From NCBI RefSeq assembly GCF_024223415.1, contig NZ_CP100500.1: a stretch of DNA of 64,000 bases. The stretch is one strand, 5' to 3'. Of the stretch, positions 4,956 to 56,193 are shown piece after piece. The DNA is from Escherichia coli. GTDB taxonomy: Bacteria > Pseudomonadota > Gammaproteobacteria > Enterobacterales > Enterobacteriaceae. The first letter of the stretch is position 1, and the number at the start of each line of letters is the position of its first letter. The position numbers and the translations under genes were made by a program. Below the pieces are notes generated by a model that was not told the DNA's origin, ran no database searches, and was given only the letters and a program-made list of their open reading frames with translations.

Positions 4956-5122
4956 GTAAGCGTCGCATCAGGCAATGGTACTCGGATGCCGGATGCGGCG
5001 TGAACGCCTTATCCGGCCTACGGTTCAGGCACAGGTTTGTAGGCCTGATAAGACGCGTAAGCGTCGCATCAGGCAATGGTGCTCGGATGCCGGATGCGGC
5101 GTGAACGCCTTATCCGGCCTAC
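4956..5122. repeat. REP/BIME cluster, right part, immediately downstream of ybaQ
   Basis: Repeated gccggatgcggcgtgaacgccttatccggcctac and gcctgataagacgcgtaagcgtcgcatcaggc units. Confidence 0.8.
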
Positions 5123-5623: not shown

Positions 5624-6418
5624 ATGGATCTGTTGTACCGGGTAAAAACGCTTTGGGCCGCGCTGCGCGGTAATCATTACTCCTGGCCTGCCATCGATAT
5701 CACCCTCCCCGGCAATCGCCATTTTCATCTGATTGGCAGTATTCATATGGGTAGCCACGATATGGCTCCCCTGCCCGCCCGTTTGCTCAAAAAGCTCAAA
5801 AACGCCGATGCGCTGATCGTCGAGGCGGATGTTTCCACCAACGATACGCCTTTTGCTAATTTGCCTGCCTGCGAGGCGCTGGAAGAGCGCATTAGCGAGG
5901 AGCAACTCCAAAAACTGCAGCACATTAGCCAGGAGATGGGCATTTCTCCCTCACTCTTTTCTACCCAACCGCTGTGGCAAATCGCGATGGTTCTTCAGGC
6001 GACGCAGGCACAAAAACTGGGGCTGCGGGCAGAATACGGTATCGATTACCAGCTATTGCAGGCGGCGAAGCAACAACATAAACCCGTGATTGAACTGGAA
6101 GGGGCGGAAAACCAGATTGCCATGTTGCTCCAGCTCCCTGACAAAGGACTGGCGCTGCTGGACGATACGCTGACCCACTGGCATACCAACGCACGGTTGC
6201 TGCAACAAATGATGAGCTGGTGGCTGAATGCGCCGCCGCAAAATAATGAAATAACGCTGCCCAATACGTTCAGTCAGTCGCTGTACGATGTGCTGATGCA
6301 TCAGCGAAATCTCGCCTGGCGGGATAAATTACGCGCCATGCCGCCGGGGCGATATGTGGTCGCGGTCGGTGCACTACACCTGTATGGAGAAGGGAATTTG
6401 CCGCAAATGTTGCGCTAA
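5624..6418 (+). CDS. ybaP: TraB-family protein YbaP, 264 aa
   Basis: ORF track; recalled protein and synteny. Confidence 0.9.
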   Translation: MDLLYRVKTLWAALRGNHYSWPAIDITLPGNRHFHLIGSIHMGSHDMAPLPARLLKKLKNADALIVEADVSTNDTPFANLPACEALEERISEEQLQKLQHISQEMGISPSLFSTQPLWQIAMVLQATQAQKLGLRAEYGIDYQLLQAAKQQHKPVIELEGAENQIAMLLQLPDKGLALLDDTLTHWHTNARLLQQMMSWWLNAPPQNNEITLPNTFSQSLYDVLMHQRNLAWRDKLRAMPPGRYVVAVGALHLYGEGNLPQMLR

Positions 6419-6500
6419 AAAAATGGCCAATATCGCTATTGGCCCGTCAAAGAGGAATTTCATTTTTTTATTATTATGCCGTCACTTTAAGCGACGGTGT
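6417..6500 (-). ncRNA. chiX: Hfq-dependent sRNA ChiX (MicM/SroB)
   Basis: Reverse complement reads ACACCGTCGCTTAAAGTGACGG...GGCCAATAGCGATATTGGCCATTTTTTT, matching recalled ChiX; ybaP-ybaK intergenic; 3' T-run overlaps the ybaP stop. Confidence 0.9.
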
Positions 6501-12149: not shown

Positions 12150-12262
12150 TTGCCGGATGTAAAATATGAAAAATATGTAGGCATGATAAGACGCGCCAGC
12201 GTCGCATCAGGCATCGAGATGCCAAATGCCAGATGCGGCGTGAACGCCTTATCTGGCCTACG
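12150..12262. repeat. REP/BIME elements between convergent ybaL and gsk
   Basis: gcatgataagacgcgccagcgtcgcatcaggc and gccagatgcggcgtgaacgccttatctggcctac. Confidence 0.8.
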
Positions 12263-16606: not shown

Positions 16607-18481
16607 TCAGGAAAGCAGCAGCTGGTTCATACGACGAATAAACAGGTTCGGATCTTCCAGCGTGCCGCGTTCTGCCAGCAGCGCCTGATCCAGCAGCAGT
16701 TCTACCCACTCGCTGAACTTCGCTTCATCTTCAGTATCTGCCGCACGTTTCACCAGTACGTGATCCGGGTTCAGTTCGAAGATGTATTTCACTTCCGGCA
16801 CTTTCTGGCCCGCTGCGGCAAACAGTTTCGCCATCTGAGTGCTCATTTCGTCCGCATCAGTAGAGACAATCGCTGGCGTATCGGTCAGACGGTGAGTCAG
16901 ACGGACATCTTTCACGCGCTCGCCGAGCAGGGCTTTCACACGGTCGATGAACGGAGTCAGTGCTTTCTCCGCTTCTTTCGCGCTCTCATCAACTTCGTCA
17001 GCCAGTTTTTCCAGCGACTCGTCAACTTTAGACACCGACTGGAACGGTTTACCGTCGAACTCAGTCAGATAGTTCATCATCCACTCATCGATGCGGTCGG
17101 AAAGCAGCAGAACTTCGATGCCTTTCTTACGCAGCAGTTCCAGGTGCGGGCTGCTCTTCGCTGCCGCATAGCTGTCTGCAGTGATGTAGTAGATTTTCTC
17201 CTGCCCTTCTTTCATGCGGGAAACGTAGTCTTCCAGAGACACGGTCTGCGCAGAAGAATCGGTATGAGTAGAAGCAAAACGCAGCAGTTTGGCGATCGCT
17301 TCCTGGTTAGCGAAATCTTCCGCCGGACCTTCTTTCAGTACCAGGCCAAACTGTTGCCAGAAGGTCTGGTATTTTTCCGCGTCGTCTTTCGCCAGTTTTT
17401 CCAGCATTTGCAGCACACGCTTGGTCAGCGCATTGCGCAGGTTACGCGTTACCGTGCTGTCCTGGAGGATTTCACGGGAAACGTTCAGCGGCAGATCGCT
17501 GGAGTCAATCAGACCACGCACGAAGCGCAGATAGTTCGGCATGAACTGTTCTGCGTCGTCCATGATGAACACACGCTGAACATACAGTTTCAGACCGTGT
17601 TTATGATCACGGTTCCACATATCCCACGGAGCCTGGGACGGGATGTACAGCAGGCTGGTGTACTCCTGCTTACCTTCAACACGGTTGTGGCTCCAGGTCA
17701 GCGGATCGTTAAAGTCGTGGGCGATGTGTTTGTAGAACTCTTTGTACTCTTCATCGGTGATTTCCGACTTGTTACGAGTCCACAGCGCCTGCGCTTTGTT
17801 GATTTTTTCCCAGGAGATAACGGTTTCGCCGTCTTTCTCTTCGCGTTTTTCGATCTCTACCGGCAGCGCGATATGGTCGGAGTATTTGCTGATGATGGAA
17901 CGCACGCGCCAGTCATCGAGGAACTCGTCTTCGCCTTCACGCAGATGCAGGGTGATTTCAGTACCACGATCTTCTTTGGTGATGTCGGCAACGGTGTATT
18001 CACCTTCGCCAGCCGATTCCCAGAAGACGCCATTTTCTGGTTTTTCGCCTGCCGCGCGAGTACGCACGGTCACTTTGTCGGCCACGATAAACGCAGAGTA
18101 GAAACCAACACCAAACTGACCGATCAGCTGGCTGTCTTTCGCCTGGTCAGAACCCAGGGATTCGAGGAATGATTTGGTACCGGATTTAGCGATAGTCCCC
18201 AGATGGTCAATCACTTCGTCGCGGGTCATCCCCACGCCGTTATCGGAGATGGTCAGCGTGCGCTTGTCTTTATCGAAAGAGACACGAACGCGCAGTTCGC
18301 CATCACCTTCGTACAGGTCCGGGTTAGAGAGCGCACGGAAACGCAGCTTGTCCGCCGCATCGGAGGCGTTAGAGATAAGCTCACGCAGGAAGATTTCTTT
18401 ATTGGAATAGAGAGAATGGATCATCAGGTGCAGAAGCTGTTTCACTTCTGACTGAAAACCACGAGTTTCTTGTCCTTTCAT
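16607..18481 (-). CDS. htpG: Chaperone HtpG (Hsp90), 624 aa
   Basis: ORF track; recalled protein. Confidence 0.97.
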
Positions 18482-18532: not shown

Positions 18533-18561
18533 AGATGGGGACAAGGGAGAATAATTTCAAG
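18533..18561 (-). promoter_or_regulatory. Sigma-32 heat-shock promoter of htpG (CTTGAAA -35, CCCCATCT -10)
   Basis: Minus strand reads cttgaaa-N14-ccccatct about 50 nt upstream of the htpG ATG. Confidence 0.6.
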
Positions 18562-19577: not shown

Positions 19578-21515
19578 TCAAATGGGGCGGATACTTTCTT
19601 CATCCAGCTCCGCATCGAAAAACCGACGCAGGGTCTGAATATTATTATCCGCAATAATGGACTCGCGCGCCTGCGCAAGTTTTTCTTCGTATATCGCCTG
19701 ACGCCACTCCAGCGGCGTACGCACCGCGGGATTATCATCTTCAACGATAGTCAGTTCAACCGTTGAACCTTTTAACATGCTCAACGCTTCAGCCAGTTTT
19801 TGCTGTGCACCGCGGTTGTTCAAATGCCGCTGAGAGGAGCGCAAATGCAGACATACTGCGTTGTCGCTCTCCTCTTTCCAGGCATTTAACGCCACCTGTT
19901 CGACCAGTTTTGGTAGCGAAAGTTGGCTCACCTGTGCCGCCCACGGGTCGCGCTCAATGGCTTCTGCCGCTAGCTTCGCCGCCAGTTCCGGCGTTTTTTC
20001 ATGTTCCAGCGCTTTTTTCAGCGCCTTCGGCGTGGCGACCACTTCTTTTTGCTGTATCACCGGAGTGGTCGCCTTCCAGCGATACGCTTCTTTTTTGGCT
20101 GGCGCTTTTTCCAGCGCCGATGGCACCGGACGCGCCTGAACGCGATCGGTGACCGAAGCCAGTCTTTCCAGCGCAGCGTTATTCACCGGCCGCGCGCGGG
20201 TAGCGGCTGCCGGTTCACTCTTTTTTGCTTTGGTTGCTCCCTGCACGCGCTGCAACTGCTGGCGCGCCGCCAGCACCTGGCTGGTGGTTTCCGGGAGCGG
20301 TACAGTCGGTGCCTGCTGCGGCGCTGATTGCGGTTGCGGTTGCGGCGGCACCTGGGTTGGCGTCATTACTGCCGTTGGCGCGACGGGTGCAAAGGACTGG
20401 CGTGGCACTTCTGGCTCAGGCAGCGGCATACGCGGATGGAACGCCAGCGCGCGCAGCAGCGTCATCTCAACGCCCATGCGGCGGTCCGGCGCATACGGTA
20501 ATTCTTTGCGACCAATCAACAGCGTCTGATAGTAAAGCTGAATATCCGTCGGCGGTATGGTGCGCGCCAGTTCACGCATCCGCAGCTCGATGGCGGCCAT
20601 GTCGTTGCCAAGTGCAGCAGGCGAAAGTTGTACCATCGCAATACGATGCAACAGGCCGAGCATTTCCACCAGCAACGCTTCCCACTCGATACCACGGGCA
20701 GCGGCTTCATTAATCAGCGCCATTACGCGCTCGCCGTTGGCCTCGACCATCGCTTCAACCAGCGACAGCGCCTGATCGTCGTCAAGCGTACCCAGCATCG
20801 CACTGACCGCCTGGGTTGAAACCTGGCCGTCACCGCTGGCAATCGCCTGGTCGGTCAGACTTAAGGCATCTCGCAGGCTGCCTTCAGCGGCGCGCGCCAG
20901 CAATTGCAGCGCCCGCGGCTCGTGAGCGATATGTTCTTCATTGAGGATGTGCTCAAGTTGATGGCGAATTTGCTCGACATCCAGCGCCTTGAGATGAAAT
21001 TGCAAACAGCGCGACAAAATCGTCACCGGCAATTTCTGTGGATCGGTCGTCGCCAGCAGAAACTTAACGTGCTCCGGCGGCTCTTCAAGAGTTTTTAACA
21101 GTGCGTTAAAGCTGTGGCGCGACAGCATATGCACTTCGTCGATGAGATAAACTTTGAAACGACCACGCGCCGGAGCGTACTGGACGTTATCCAGCAGGTC
21201 GCGAGTGTCTTCAACTTTGGTGCGCGAGGCGGCGTCGATTTCAATCAGATCGACAAAGCGCCCCTGCTCGATTTCACGACAGTTATCGCACACGCCGCAC
21301 GGCGTCGCGGTAATGCCGGTTTCGCAGTTTAGCCCCTTCGCCAGCAGTCGGGCGATAGAGGTTTTTCCGACGCCACGGGTACCGGAAAAAAGATAAGCAT
21401 GATGAATACGCCCTAACGACAAGCCGTTCGCCAGTGCGGTCAGCACATGTTCCTGGCCGACGACGTCAGCAAAGGTTTGTGGGCGCCATTTTCGGGCTAA
21501 GACCTGATAACTCAT
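19578..21515 (-). CDS. dnaX: DNA polymerase III tau/gamma subunit DnaX, 645 aa in this sequence
   Basis: ORF track; Walker A GTRGVGKT; internal recoding site. Confidence 0.96.
   Translation of the reverse strand: MSYQVLARKWRPQTFADVVGQEHVLTALANGLSLGRIHHAYLFSGTRGVGKTSIARLLAKGLNCETGITATPCGVCDNCREIEQGRFVDLIEIDAASRTKVEDTRDLLDNVQYAPARGRFKVYLIDEVHMLSRHSFNALLKTLEEPPEHVKFLLATTDPQKLPVTILSRCLQFHLKALDVEQIRHQLEHILNEEHIAHEPRALQLLARAAEGSLRDALSLTDQAIASGDGQVSTQAVSAMLGTLDDDQALSLVEAMVEANGERVMALINEAAARGIEWEALLVEMLGLLHRIAMVQLSPAALGNDMAAIELRMRELARTIPPTDIQLYYQTLLIGRKELPYAPDRRMGVEMTLLRALAFHPRMPLPEPEVPRQSFAPVAPTAVMTPTQVPPQPQPQSAPQQAPTVPLPETTSQVLAARQQLQRVQGATKAKKSEPAAATRARPVNNAALERLASVTDRVQARPVPSALEKAPAKKEAYRWKATTPVIQQKEVVATPKALKKALEHEKTPELAAKLAAEAIERDPWAAQVSQLSLPKLVEQVALNAWKEESDNAVCLHLRSSQRHLNNRGAQQKLAEALSMLKGSTVELTIVEDDNPAVRTPLEWRQAIYEEKLAQARESIIADNNIQTLRRFFDAELDEESIRPI
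20220..20226 (-). other. dnaX programmed -1 frameshift site (A AAA AAG) with downstream stem-loop, producing gamma
   Basis: Plus strand cttttttgc is the reverse complement of gcAAAAAAGag; GC-rich stem-loop at about 20170-20215. Confidence 0.8.
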
Positions 21516-37044: not shown

Positions 37045-37158
37045 TGGGTGGGGGCCCTGCCAGCTACATCCCGGCACACGCGTCATCTGCCTTGGCTGCT
37101 TCCTTCCGGACCTGACCTGGTAAACAGAGTAGCGTTGCGGGAGAACCAACAGAGCCCC
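37045..37158 (-). ncRNA. ffs: 4.5S RNA, SRP RNA component
   Basis: Reverse complement begins GGGGGCTCTGTTGGTTCTCCCGCAACGCTACTCTGTTTACCAGGTCAGGTCCGGAAGGAAGCAGCCAAGGCAGATGACGCGTGTGCCGGGATGTAGCTGGCAGGGCCCCCACCC, matching recalled 114-nt 4.5S RNA; ybaA-atl intergenic. Confidence 0.93.
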
Positions 37159-52376: not shown

Positions 52377-54731
52377 CTATTTTGCAGTCACAAGCTGCAT
52401 GCCAGACGGTTCATTTTGCAGCGCCAGAGTCAGAACTTCCTCAATGCGCTTCACAGGATGAATGTCCAGATCGGCAATTACGTTGTCAGGAATCTCTTCC
52501 AGATCGCGTTTATTTTCGAACGGAATTAACACTGTTTTAATCCCGCCGCGATGCGCTGCCAGTAGTTTTTCTTTCAAACCACCGATCGGCAGTACCTGAC
52601 CACGCAGAGTGATCTCACCGGTCATTGCCACATCGGCACGAACCGGGTTACCGGTCAGGCAAGAAACCAGCGCGGTGCACATAGCAATACCGGCACTCGG
52701 ACCATCTTTCGGCGTCGCACCTTCCGGTACGTGGACGTGGATGTCACGTTTTTCGTAAAAATCAGGGTTGATCCCCAGTTTTTCCGCACGCGCACGAACC
52801 ACCGTTAACGCCGCCTGAATAGACTCCTGCATCACTTCGCCGAGCGAACCGGTATAGGTCAGTTTGCCTTTACCCGGAACACATGCGGTTTCAATGGTCA
52901 GCAAGTCACCGCCCACTTCCGTCCACGCCAGACCGGTTACCTGACCGACACGGTTTTCGTTATCCGCGCGTCCATAGTCGAAACGCTGAACACCAAGGTA
53001 GTCATGCAGGTTGTCGCCGTTAATTTCGATATGTTTTAATGACTTATCGAGCAGTAACTGCTTAACCGCTTTACGGCACAGCTTGGAGATTTCACGCTCC
53101 AGACCACGCACGCCCGCCTCACGGGTGTAGTAACGAATAATGCCGATAATGGCGCTATCGTCGACGGTCAGCTCACCTTTTTTCAGTGCATTACGTTCAA
53201 TCTGCTTCGGCAGCAGGTGACGTTTGGCGATGTTCAGTTTTTCATCTTCGGTATAACCGGAGAGGCGAATCACTTCCATACGATCCAGCAGCGGTGCCGG
53301 AATGTTCATGGAGTTCGACGTCGCGACAAACATCACGTCGCTGAGATCGTAATCCACTTCCAGGTAGTGGTCGCTGAACGCTACGTTCTGCTCTGGATCG
53401 AGCACTTCAAGCAGTGCAGAGGCCGGATCGCCACGCATGTCAGAAGACATTTTGTCGATCTCATCGAGCAGGAACAGCGGGTTTTTAACGCCCACTTTCG
53501 CCATTTTCTGGATCAATTTACCCGGCATAGAACCGATGTAAGTACGGCGGTGACCACGGATTTCCGCTTCATCACGCACGCCGCCCAGCGCCATACGGAC
53601 ATATTTACGCCCGGTGGCTTTGGCAATGGACTGACCAAGAGAGGTTTTACCTACCCCCGGCGGCCCTACCAGGCAGAGGATCGGTCCCTTGATTTTGTTG
53701 ACACGGCTTTGAACCGCAAGATACTCAAGGATTCGATCTTTCACGCGCTCCAGACCATAATGGTCGGTATCAAGGATTTCCTGCGCCTGACGCAGGTCTT
53801 TTTTGACCTTGCTGCGCGCATTCCACGGTACCTGTACCATCCAGTCGATATAACCACGCACTACGGTCGCTTCTGCCGACATCGGAGACATCATTTTCAG
53901 CTTCTGCAACTCTGCTTCCGCTTTCTCTTTTGCCTCTTTCGGCATCTTCGCCGCGTCGATTTTGCGCTTCAGGGCTTCGTTTTCGTCCGGCGCGTCGTCC
54001 ATTTCACCGAGTTCTTTCTGAATAGCTTTCATTTGCTCGTTCAGATAGTACTCACGCTGGGATTTCTCCATCTGCTTTTTAACGCGGTTGCGAATGCGTT
54101 TCTCAACCTGCAGCAGATCGATTTCCGATTCCATCATTGCCATCAGATATTCCAGACGTTCGTTAACGTCGGACATCTCCAGAACGGACTGTTTGTCAGC
54201 CAGTTTCAGCGGCATATGTGCAGCAATGGTATCCGCCAGACGCGCCGGATCGTCGATGCTATTCAGCGACGTCAGCACTTCTGGTGGGATTTTTTTGTTC
54301 AGCTTGATGTAGCCTTCGAACTGGCTGATTGCAGTACGCACCAGCACTTCCTGTTCTCGCTCATCAATGGTCGGCGACTCCAGATACTCCGCCTTCGCAG
54401 AAAAGTGTTCGCCATTGTCAGAGAGCGCAGAAATACGCGCGCGCTGTAACCCCTCGACCAGCACTTTGACGGTGCCGTCAGGCAGTTTCAGCATCTGCAA
54501 TATAGAGGCCACGGTCCCGACGGTGAAAAGATCGTTTACACCCGGCTCATCCGTTGAAGCTTCTTTCTGCGCGACCAGCATAATTTTTTTATCATGGTCC
54601 ATCGCCGCTTCCAGACAACGGATAGATTTTTCCCGCCCGACAAATAAGGGGATGACCATGTGCGGATAAACCACCACATCGCGCAGCGGCAATACGGGGA
54701 TTTCAATGCGTTCAGAACGCTCAGGATTCAT
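52377..54731 (-). CDS. lon: ATP-dependent Lon protease, 784 aa
   Basis: ORF track trimmed to [18 protein letters not shown]; Walker [10 protein letters not shown], catalytic Ser in PKDGPSAG. Confidence 0.97.
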
Positions 54732-54813
54732 AGAGCTCTCTCTTAGTTTAATTTCCGCCAGGTAATCAGATGACACGACTGTGCTTCACGCCATCTATTA
54801 ACATGTACGTCAG

Positions 54814-54842
54814 TATATGGGGATGTTTCCCCCACATTCAAC
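54814..54842 (-). promoter_or_regulatory. Sigma-32 heat-shock promoter of lon (TTGAA -35, CCCCATAT -10)
   Basis: Minus strand reads cgttgaatgtgggggaaacatccccatatactgacg upstream of lon. Confidence 0.75.
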
Positions 54843-54918
54843 GCCGAGAATAGAGGAAAAATTAAAGGGGAGATAAAATCCCCCCTTTTTGGTTAACTAA
54901 TTGTATGGGAATGGTTAA

Positions 54919-56193
54919 TTATTCACCAGATGCCTGTTGCGCTTCCGGCTTGCCATAAATCAGCAACGGTTTGCTTTGACCATCAATTACCGACTCGTCG
55001 ATAACCACTTTTTCGACATCTTCCATGGACGGCAGATCGTACATGGTATCGAGCAGTGCGGCTTCTACGATGGAACGCAGGCCACGGGCACCGGTTTTAC
55101 GCGCCATCGCTTTCTTAGCGATAGCATCCAGCGCCTCGTCACGGAATTCCAGATCCACGCCTTCCAGATTAAACAGCGCCTGATACTGCTTGGTCAGGGC
55201 GTTTTTCGGCTCTTTGAGGATCTGAATCAGAGCTTCTTCGCTCAGTTCATTCAACGTTGCGACAACCGGCAGACGACCAATAAACTCAGGGATAAGACCA
55301 AACTTGATCAGATCTTCCGGTTCAACCTGCGCCAGCAGCTCGCCTTCGCTTGCTTTGTCGGACTTCGCTTTTACCGTCGCGCCAAAACCAATGCCGGAGC
55401 CGGTTTCTACACGATGGGAAATCACTTTATCCAGACCGGCAAACGCACCGCCACAAATAAACAGGATCTTAGAGGTATCAACCTGCAAGAATTCCTGCTG
55501 CGGATGTTTACGCCCACCTTGCGGTGGAACAGCAGCTACCGTACCTTCGATCAGTTTCAACAGTGCCTGCTGTACGCCTTCACCGGAAACGTCACGGGTA
55601 ATAGACGGGTTGTCTGACTTACGAGAAATCTTGTCGATTTCATCGATGTAGACAATCCCGCGCTGCGCTTTCTGTACGTCGTAATCGCACTTTTGCAACA
55701 GCTTCTGAATGATGTTTTCAACGTCTTCGCCCACATAACCGGCTTCGGTCAGCGTGGTTGCGTCGGCCATGGTGAACGGGACGTCCAGCAGGCGCGCCAG
55801 CGTTTCAGCCAACAGCGTTTTACCGGAACCGGTCGGACCGATCAGTAGAATGTTACTTTTGCCCAACTCGACACCATTGCTGGTATCGCCGTTGCGCAGA
55901 CGTTTGTAATGGTTGTATACCGCGACCGCCAGCACTTTTTTCGCCTGTTCCTGGCCGATAACGTAATCGTCCAGGTGGTTACGAATTTCATGCGGCGTCG
56001 GTAGCGCACTGCGTTCACGATGCGGTGCAACTTCTTTAATCTCTTCGCGAATGATGTCGTTACATAAATCAACACATTCGTCGCAGATATACACGGATGG
56101 ACCGGCAATCAGCTTGCGCACTTCATGCTGGCTTTTGCCGCAAAAAGAGCAATACAGCAATTTGCCTGAGCCATCTTTGCGTTTATCTGTCAT
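54919..56193 (-). CDS. clpX: ATP-dependent Clp protease ATP-binding subunit ClpX, 424 aa
   Basis: ORF track; N-terminal C4 zinc finger, Walker A GPTGSGKT. Confidence 0.97.

Follow-up and report, generated by a model that had tools for sequence, protein, structure and literature searches.

The clpX-lon spacer of Escherichia coli: a terminator, a lon promoter and leader, and the antisense annotation SraA

The short interval between clpX and lon in Escherichia coli carries the annotation of a small RNA, SraA, and raises the question of whether its conserved sequence encodes a functional RNA or serves the two genes that flank it. The window referred to below is the whole stretch of E. coli DNA that was analysed, 64,000 nucleotides long, and all positions are counted in it unless another sequence is named. 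The explanation that we hold to be highly probable is that the spacer is regulatory, being made up of the clpX terminator, a dual lon promoter and a structured lon leader, and that SraA would be a weak antisense transcript that owes the conservation of its family to these elements. Textbooks or databases for E. coli K-12 already contain the heat-shock promoter of lon, the terminator of clpX and the SraA annotation, and their value for discovery is small. What is gained are corrections of the lon start and of the spacer size and the assignment of SraA to its strand, together with a point for the curation of small RNA families that is taken up below.

The spacer and the lon promoter

The first-pass annotation of this DNA had placed the interval between clpX and lon, and matches to the protein families TIGR00382 (719 bits) and NF008053 (1817 bits) bear this out. 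The two genes are co-directional, both on the minus strand (Table 1). Because the annotated and conserved start of lon is the ATG at 54731, the spacer measures 187 bp (54732..54918). The gap had initially been given as 142 bp, a figure whose lon-side boundary is off by 45 bp and which derives from the longest open reading frame, beginning with a GTG at 54776 and encoding 799 amino acids. This GTG was considered as the lon start and is ruled out by the RefSeq protein of 784 amino acids, by the end-to-end fit to NF008053 and by the mapped start site of the transcript. The ATG and the 32 nt upstream of it are conserved across genera.

Table 1. Features in and around the clpX-lon spacer, and htpG, in window positions
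Feature	Position	Strand	Basis
lon, 784 aa, ATG at 54731	52377..54731	minus	NCBIfam NF008053, 1817 bits, residues 1-784 of 784; RefSeq
lon proximal block with ribosome-binding region, 32 nt, ACCTGGCGGAAAnTAAACTAAGAGAGAGCTCT	54763..54732	minus	91% conserved, 27 Enterobacterales genera
lon 5' UTR, 73 nt	54732..54804	minus	mapped start and annotated ATG
lon leader 5' stem-loop, 12 pairs, begins 8 nt into the mRNA	54797..54767	minus	folding
main lon start site, 37 C	54804	minus	mapped via the identical spacer
overlapping sigma-70-like -10, TATACT (TTGAAT-18-TATACT)	54812..54817	minus	standard sigma-70 scan
sigma-32-type -10 element CCCCATAT, 13 nt downstream of the -35 hexamer	54815..54822	minus	-10 region 96% conserved
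lon -35 hexamer TTGAAT, common to the sigma-32 and sigma-70-type readings	54836..54841	minus	100% conserved, 27 Enterobacterales
clpX intrinsic terminator hairpin AAAGGGGGGATTTTATCTCCCCTTT, then AATTTTT on the minus strand	54864..54888	minus	terminator scan, covariation, Term-seq
clpX, 424 aa	54919..56193	minus	NCBIfam TIGR00382, 719 bits; RefSeq annotation of identical DNA
Rfam RF02029 (sraA) match, spanning lon promoter and clpX terminator	54803..54898	plus	106.7 bits
best candidate plus-strand sigma-70 promoter, TTAACA-18-GATGTT	54798..54827	plus	relaxed scan, top score
older sraA annotation, 56-57 nt, inferred extent, 3' end after T-run	54835..54891	plus	position transfer from K. pneumoniae
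htpG	16607-18481		NF003555, 862 bits

A 451-bp query across the interval matches many O157:H7 and other strains at 100% identity and is present in 5,424 of 5,426 complete genomes, and the spacer is 100% identical to that of K-12 MG1655. Because of this last identity, K-12 coordinates can be transferred exactly to the window: a position in NC_000913.3 equals 458700 + (54919 - window position), and its equivalent in NC_000913.2 is 776 lower. For comparison between species, 80 clpX-lon loci were fetched, from Escherichia to Vibrio, Shewanella, Pseudoalteromonas and Colwellia (81 with the window), and conservation was profiled on an alignment of 27 Enterobacterales genera. The two genes are adjacent in all 80 fetched loci. 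Enlarged spacers of 391-508 bp occur in Budvicia, a Vibrio and Colwellia.

The well-formed sigma-32-type lon promoter that the first-pass annotation described is present and deeply conserved. It lies on the minus strand at 54841..54815 and reads TTGAAT-N13-CCCCATAT (in full, TTGAATGTGGGGGAAACATCCCCATAT), with its -35 hexamer beginning 111 nt upstream of the lon ATG. The sigma-32 consensus is TTGAAA-N13-14-CCCCATNT, with the two boxes about 13-15 nt apart and transcription starting about 6-8 nt past the -10 element, and the heat induction of lon via sigma-32 is well established. With the strict pattern TTGAA-N12-16-CCCCATNT, two matches are found in the 64 kb where 0.05 are expected, a number that none of 100 shuffles reaches. 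The second match (TTGAAATTATTCTCCCTTGTCCCCATCT, 18560..18533, minus strand) lies about 52 nt upstream of htpG and was used as a positive control from within the window. Preceding lon and htpG, both matches mark classical heat-shock genes. The motif is kept in 70 of the 81 gammaproteobacterial spacers, from Escherichia to Vibrio, Pseudoalteromonas and Colwellia, and among these 70 the sequence between the -35 and -10 boxes varies freely. In placing TTGAAT-N13-CCCCATAT before a classical heat-shock gene, the locus resembles the E. coli sigma-32 (RpoH) promoters of dnaK, groE, htpG and lon.

It differs from such promoters in where transcription starts at 37 C. Table S1 of Kim et al. 2012 lists a lon start at 458039 (+) of NC_000913.2 with a 73-nt 5' UTR, and the Cappable-seq data for the K-12 plus strand give 458039 as the dominant lon start, with a score of 189. 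In the window this position is 54804, which is 73 nt upstream of the ATG. It lies 7 nt downstream of TATACT and 10 nt downstream of CCCCATAT, and it fits the sigma-70-like TATACT better. TTGAAT-18-TATACT is also the only sigma-70-like site that a standard scan of 54500-55150 returns. The hexamer ATATAC, which joins the ATAT of CCCCATAT to the next two bases and holds most of TATACT, is kept in 47 of the 70 loci that carry the motif. From the position of the 37 C start relative to the two elements, the lon promoter is read as dual, with overlapping sigma-70-like and sigma-32 -10 boxes served by one -35 box, and its use by sigma-32 is predicted.

The clpX terminator and the lon leader

On the clpX side of the spacer lies a hairpin that is terminator-like on both strands because it stands between an A-run and a T-run. 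The two senses are nevertheless unequal: the terminator scan finds 11 pairs on the minus strand, in clpX sense, and 5 pairs on the plus strand, and the free energy is -14.5 kcal/mol in clpX sense against -10.6 kcal/mol in SraA sense. Compensatory changes occur in 10 of the 11 terminator pairs, which 0 of 500 shuffles reach, and the clpX terminator is therefore a real RNA structure. G-U wobble pairs that are possible in one sense alone occupy 21 alignment cells in clpX sense and 6 in the opposite sense. Moreover, the Term-seq data in the supplement of Adams et al. 2021 contain a 3' end at 458758 (+), which is window position 54861 and falls within the clpX-sense T-run; the same study flags the clpX 3' end as Rho-affected. 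A clpX-sense terminator is found in 74 of the 81 loci and also scores in antisense in 51 of the 81. Terminators that score in antisense only were looked for as well and occur in none of the 81.

The hairpin resembles bidirectional intrinsic terminators: it is G+C-rich, is flanked by AAAAA and by TTTAATTTTT, and scores on both strands. It differs from them in three respects. The flanking genes here are co-directional and not convergent, the stem is stronger and compatible with wobble pairs in clpX sense only, and the experimental 3' end is seen in clpX sense only.

The lon leader opens with a stem-loop that is also stronger on the gene strand, at -10.7 kcal/mol in lon sense against -2.9 kcal/mol in antisense, because of G-U pairs. 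When their sequences are folded singly, other genera keep a stem-loop in the lon leader with different sequences, and the leader of Yersinia has a duplicated CTCGTG that would permit alternative pairings. RNAalifold, run on a MAFFT alignment of the leader, returned just a trivial helix of 4 pairs, since the alignment does not bring the variable stem-loops into register. The leader of Mangrovibacter carries a 31-nt insertion. Next to the lon start codon, the proximal block of 32 nt is conserved far beyond what ribosome binding needs, which suggests an unrecognised translational control element.

At the mapped start site the E. coli lon mRNA begins with AUG, which opens a leaderless reading frame of 12 codons (54766-54804, minus strand). 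A conserved leaderless upstream reading frame was considered here and rejected, as frame and stop vary and the Citrobacter frame would enter lon in frame; the E. coli one is probably incidental. Adams et al. 2021 also report a Rho-dependent termination region in the leader, near 54788 (NC_000913.3 458831), with a Rho score of 1.78 and a significance of 8e-8, which we regard as a modest signal.

What the SraA family match is made of

The first-pass annotation had named SraA as possibly present, as a small RNA mapped to the clpX/lon intergenic region of K-12, with its ends and strand left unstated. The placement is right: a search of the interval returned the Rfam family RF02029 (sraA, 106.7 bits), the spacer is identical to that of MG1655, and the EcoCyc entry G0-8861 'sraA', as used by Adams et al. 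2021, falls within it. The strand is plus, so that SraA is antisense to clpX and lon and overlaps the lon promoter. Apart from the misplaced lon boundary and the missing strand, the earlier interpretation of the interval is supported.

The match covers the whole model (positions 1-95 of 95) and scores far above the gathering score of 56, with E = 6e-17. Of 20 relatives, 12 carry an RF02029 match above threshold in the same antisense syntenic position, and these range from Escherichia to Yersinia, Pectobacterium, Hafnia and Pantoea; among the 20, the match is absent from Photorhabdus, Arsenophonus, Providencia, Budvicia, Salinivibrio, Vibrio and Aeromonas. Because of the score and the synteny, the locus belongs to the RF02029 family. 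SraA is likewise placed between clpX and lon in the literature (PMC3384567), and compared with SraA of E. coli K-12 (psrA3/t15, RF02029) this is the same locus, with a sequence without differences, a full-length match and the same clpX and lon flanks.

The anatomy of the match is that of the elements on the other strand. Its first base, 54803, adjoins the lon start site. The 5' arm of its 5' hairpin is the reverse complement of the lon -10 box (AUAUGGGG) and pairs with the promoter spacer, and its 3' hairpin is the clpX terminator, after which a T5 run follows on the plus strand. Across the 27 genera, the conserved columns within the match fall only in the two lon promoter boxes (-35 and -10) and in the hairpin with its flanking A-run and T-run, and the rest is about 50% identical. 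Conservation is 46% over the 12 nt that separate the A-run from the -35 box, and 82% over the T-run on the SraA strand. In the 5' hairpin no pair shows a compensatory change, and shuffled controls reach the same 84% pairing (319 of 500). In E. coli this hairpin folds at -11.6 kcal/mol in lon sense against -8.7 kcal/mol in SraA sense.

On this pattern, the conservation that defines RF02029 is owed mostly to the promoter boxes of lon and the terminator of clpX, and not to an RNA-specific structure or seed. For curation, the case illustrates that an Rfam small RNA family can score very high purely through overlap with a conserved promoter and terminator on the other strand. Because so high a score can be obtained in this way, a strong sraA match should not be taken as evidence for a functional RNA.

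Two further candidates were set aside. The inverted repeat in the promoter spacer (GGGGG...CCCC) was considered as a conserved RNA or DNA hairpin; over 61 distinct promoters the mean z of hairpin potential in the spacer is 0.06 in antisense and -0.40 in lon sense, so the hairpin is not general, and there is no covariation. A small protein encoded by SraA, beginning with a plus-strand ATG at 54803 and 16 codons long, has no ribosome-binding site, and neither its frame nor its stop is kept in E. albertii and Citrobacter.

Antisense transcription and the standing of SraA

The older annotation of SraA describes a form of 56-57 nt, whose probable extent in Table 1 follows from the K-12 coordinates of this annotation and from the position of its K. 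pneumoniae homologue. This homologue, listed in Table S3 of Kim et al. 2012, is 56 nt long (442431..442486, minus strand) and starts 27 nt past clpX. Sources disagree on the extent: the old annotation has 56 nt, Rfam has 95 nt, and EcoCyc G0-8861 covers at least 54788..54861. On the plus strand, no promoter between 54500 and 55150 passes a standard sigma-70 consensus scan. The best candidate of a relaxed scan (TTAACA at 54798..54803, GATGTT at 54822..54827) has a predicted start at about 54834/5, which fits the 56-57-nt form, and it overlies the lon -10 element and the lon start site. The candidate is conserved only in the group of Escherichia, Citrobacter, Enterobacter and Kluyvera, where TTAACATGT forms a conserved island that could be a -35 box for SraA.

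In the explanation that we prefer, clpX transcripts end at the intrinsic terminator hairpin and T-run, as the Term-seq 3' end at 54861 and the strong covariation show. About 20 bp further on, polymerase starts lon from a compact promoter in which CCCCATAT and TATACT overlap and have TTGAAT in common. Basal expression at 37 C comes from 54804, and heat-shock induction of lon is expected from the motif, its conservation and established knowledge. The 73-nt leader has its 5' stem-loop and its conserved ribosome-binding block, with roles that are putative. SraA would be a low-abundance antisense RNA from a weak sigma-70-type promoter over the lon promoter (start about 54835) or somewhat upstream, and the clpX terminator, read from its opposite side, would end it. 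SraA is thus most likely a weak antisense transcript of unproven function; it probably has no trans-acting regulatory role, and the most that its promoter would do is to draw polymerase away from that of lon. Against the preferred explanation stands the T-run on the SraA strand, which at 82% is fairly well conserved, as would be expected if plus-strand termination matters. The conserved island TTAACATGT and the published detections of SraA cited below also speak against it.

One alternative is that there is no sraA gene, that the reported signals are pervasive antisense transcription or cross-detected fragments of the clpX 3' and lon 5' ends, and that the Rfam family is an alignment of a promoter and a terminator. 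We consider this possible but rather unlikely. It draws on negative data of several kinds. No SraA start site is listed in five published datasets, which cover few conditions and apply abundance cut-offs; the K-12 start-site tables consulted here list the plus strand. The Term-seq data of Adams et al. 2021, taken in three conditions with abundance cut-offs, show no 3' end on the SraA strand and only clpX-strand ends here, and the dataset of double-stranded RNA captured by p19 contains no site within the spacer. The current RefSeq records of K-12 carry no sraA feature, either in NC_000913.3 (455500-462500) or in W3110, although chiX and others are annotated in them, and PGAP-annotated genomes have none in the spacer. 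The same explanation is favoured by the mutual inconsistency of the three published extents, by the lack of a plus-strand promoter in the standard scan and by the DNA elements of the other strand, which fully account for the conservation of the family. It is at odds with the original detection of SraA, which was reportedly made on Northern blots by Argaman and colleagues in 2001. The candidate promoter, weak but sensibly positioned, also speaks against it by predicting the 56-nt form, as does the hairpin, which with 5 pairs and a T5 run can terminate plus-strand transcripts. EcoCyc still carries sraA, and EcoCyc-based lists continue to include it.

A second alternative, which we judge improbable, is that SraA is a genuine functional small RNA. 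It could act in trans through a single-stranded 5' part of about 30 nt (CAUUCAACGCCGAGAAUAGAGGAAAAAUU) that precedes the terminator hairpin, or it could be a cis-antisense RNA of about 95-120 nt that pairs with the 5' end of the lon mRNA and with clpX-lon read-through. The strong Rfam match, syntenic across Enterobacterales, agrees with a functional RNA, as do the usual small RNA layout of the short form (5' tail, hairpin and U-run) and the conserved T-run on its strand. The longer form finds some support in the EcoCyc annotation (Adams 2021), which reaches over the lon leader to at least 54788. Published work also contains RNA-seq detection and signals that depend on condition: SraA was counted as detected in all conditions of a 2025 RNA-seq study (PMC12266141), was induced early in biofilm formation in a study of Yersinia ruckeri, and ranked near the top of the small RNAs under one stress or more in a Salmonella Tn-seq screen.

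Several observations nevertheless count against a functional SraA, beginning with the missing start site, 3' end and captured duplexes described above. Its abundance shows no Hfq dependence in a K. pneumoniae hfq mutant (-1.02-fold). In published experiments its overexpression left biofilm, motility and fimbriae unaffected, and the phenotype of a Salmonella sraA mutant was not reproduced. Within the putative seed, conservation is limited to the bases complementary to the lon -35 box, which adjoin the 12 nt of low conservation. The 5' hairpin is without covariation, and both the terminator and the stem-loop of the lon leader favour the gene strand. The features by which Hfq-dependent trans-acting small RNAs are recognised, namely Hfq-dependent abundance and a conserved seed, are lacking here, the sequence outside the promoter and terminator being about 46-50% conserved. 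Independent evidence for SraA as a functional RNA is thin.

It is very improbable that the locus is a promoter switch, with SraA as by-product or agent, in which polymerase at TTAACA-18-GATGTT would exclude lon polymerase and vice versa, tuning basal lon expression until sigma-32 holoenzyme released it on heat shock.

Elsewhere in the window, other Rfam families match above their gathering scores. These are the dnaX frameshift element (20181-20245, minus strand), sroB (ChiX; 6417-6500, minus strand), the SRP RNA (ffs; 37055-37151, minus strand) and two copies of the REP-derived naRNA4 (5042-5119 and 12180-12258).
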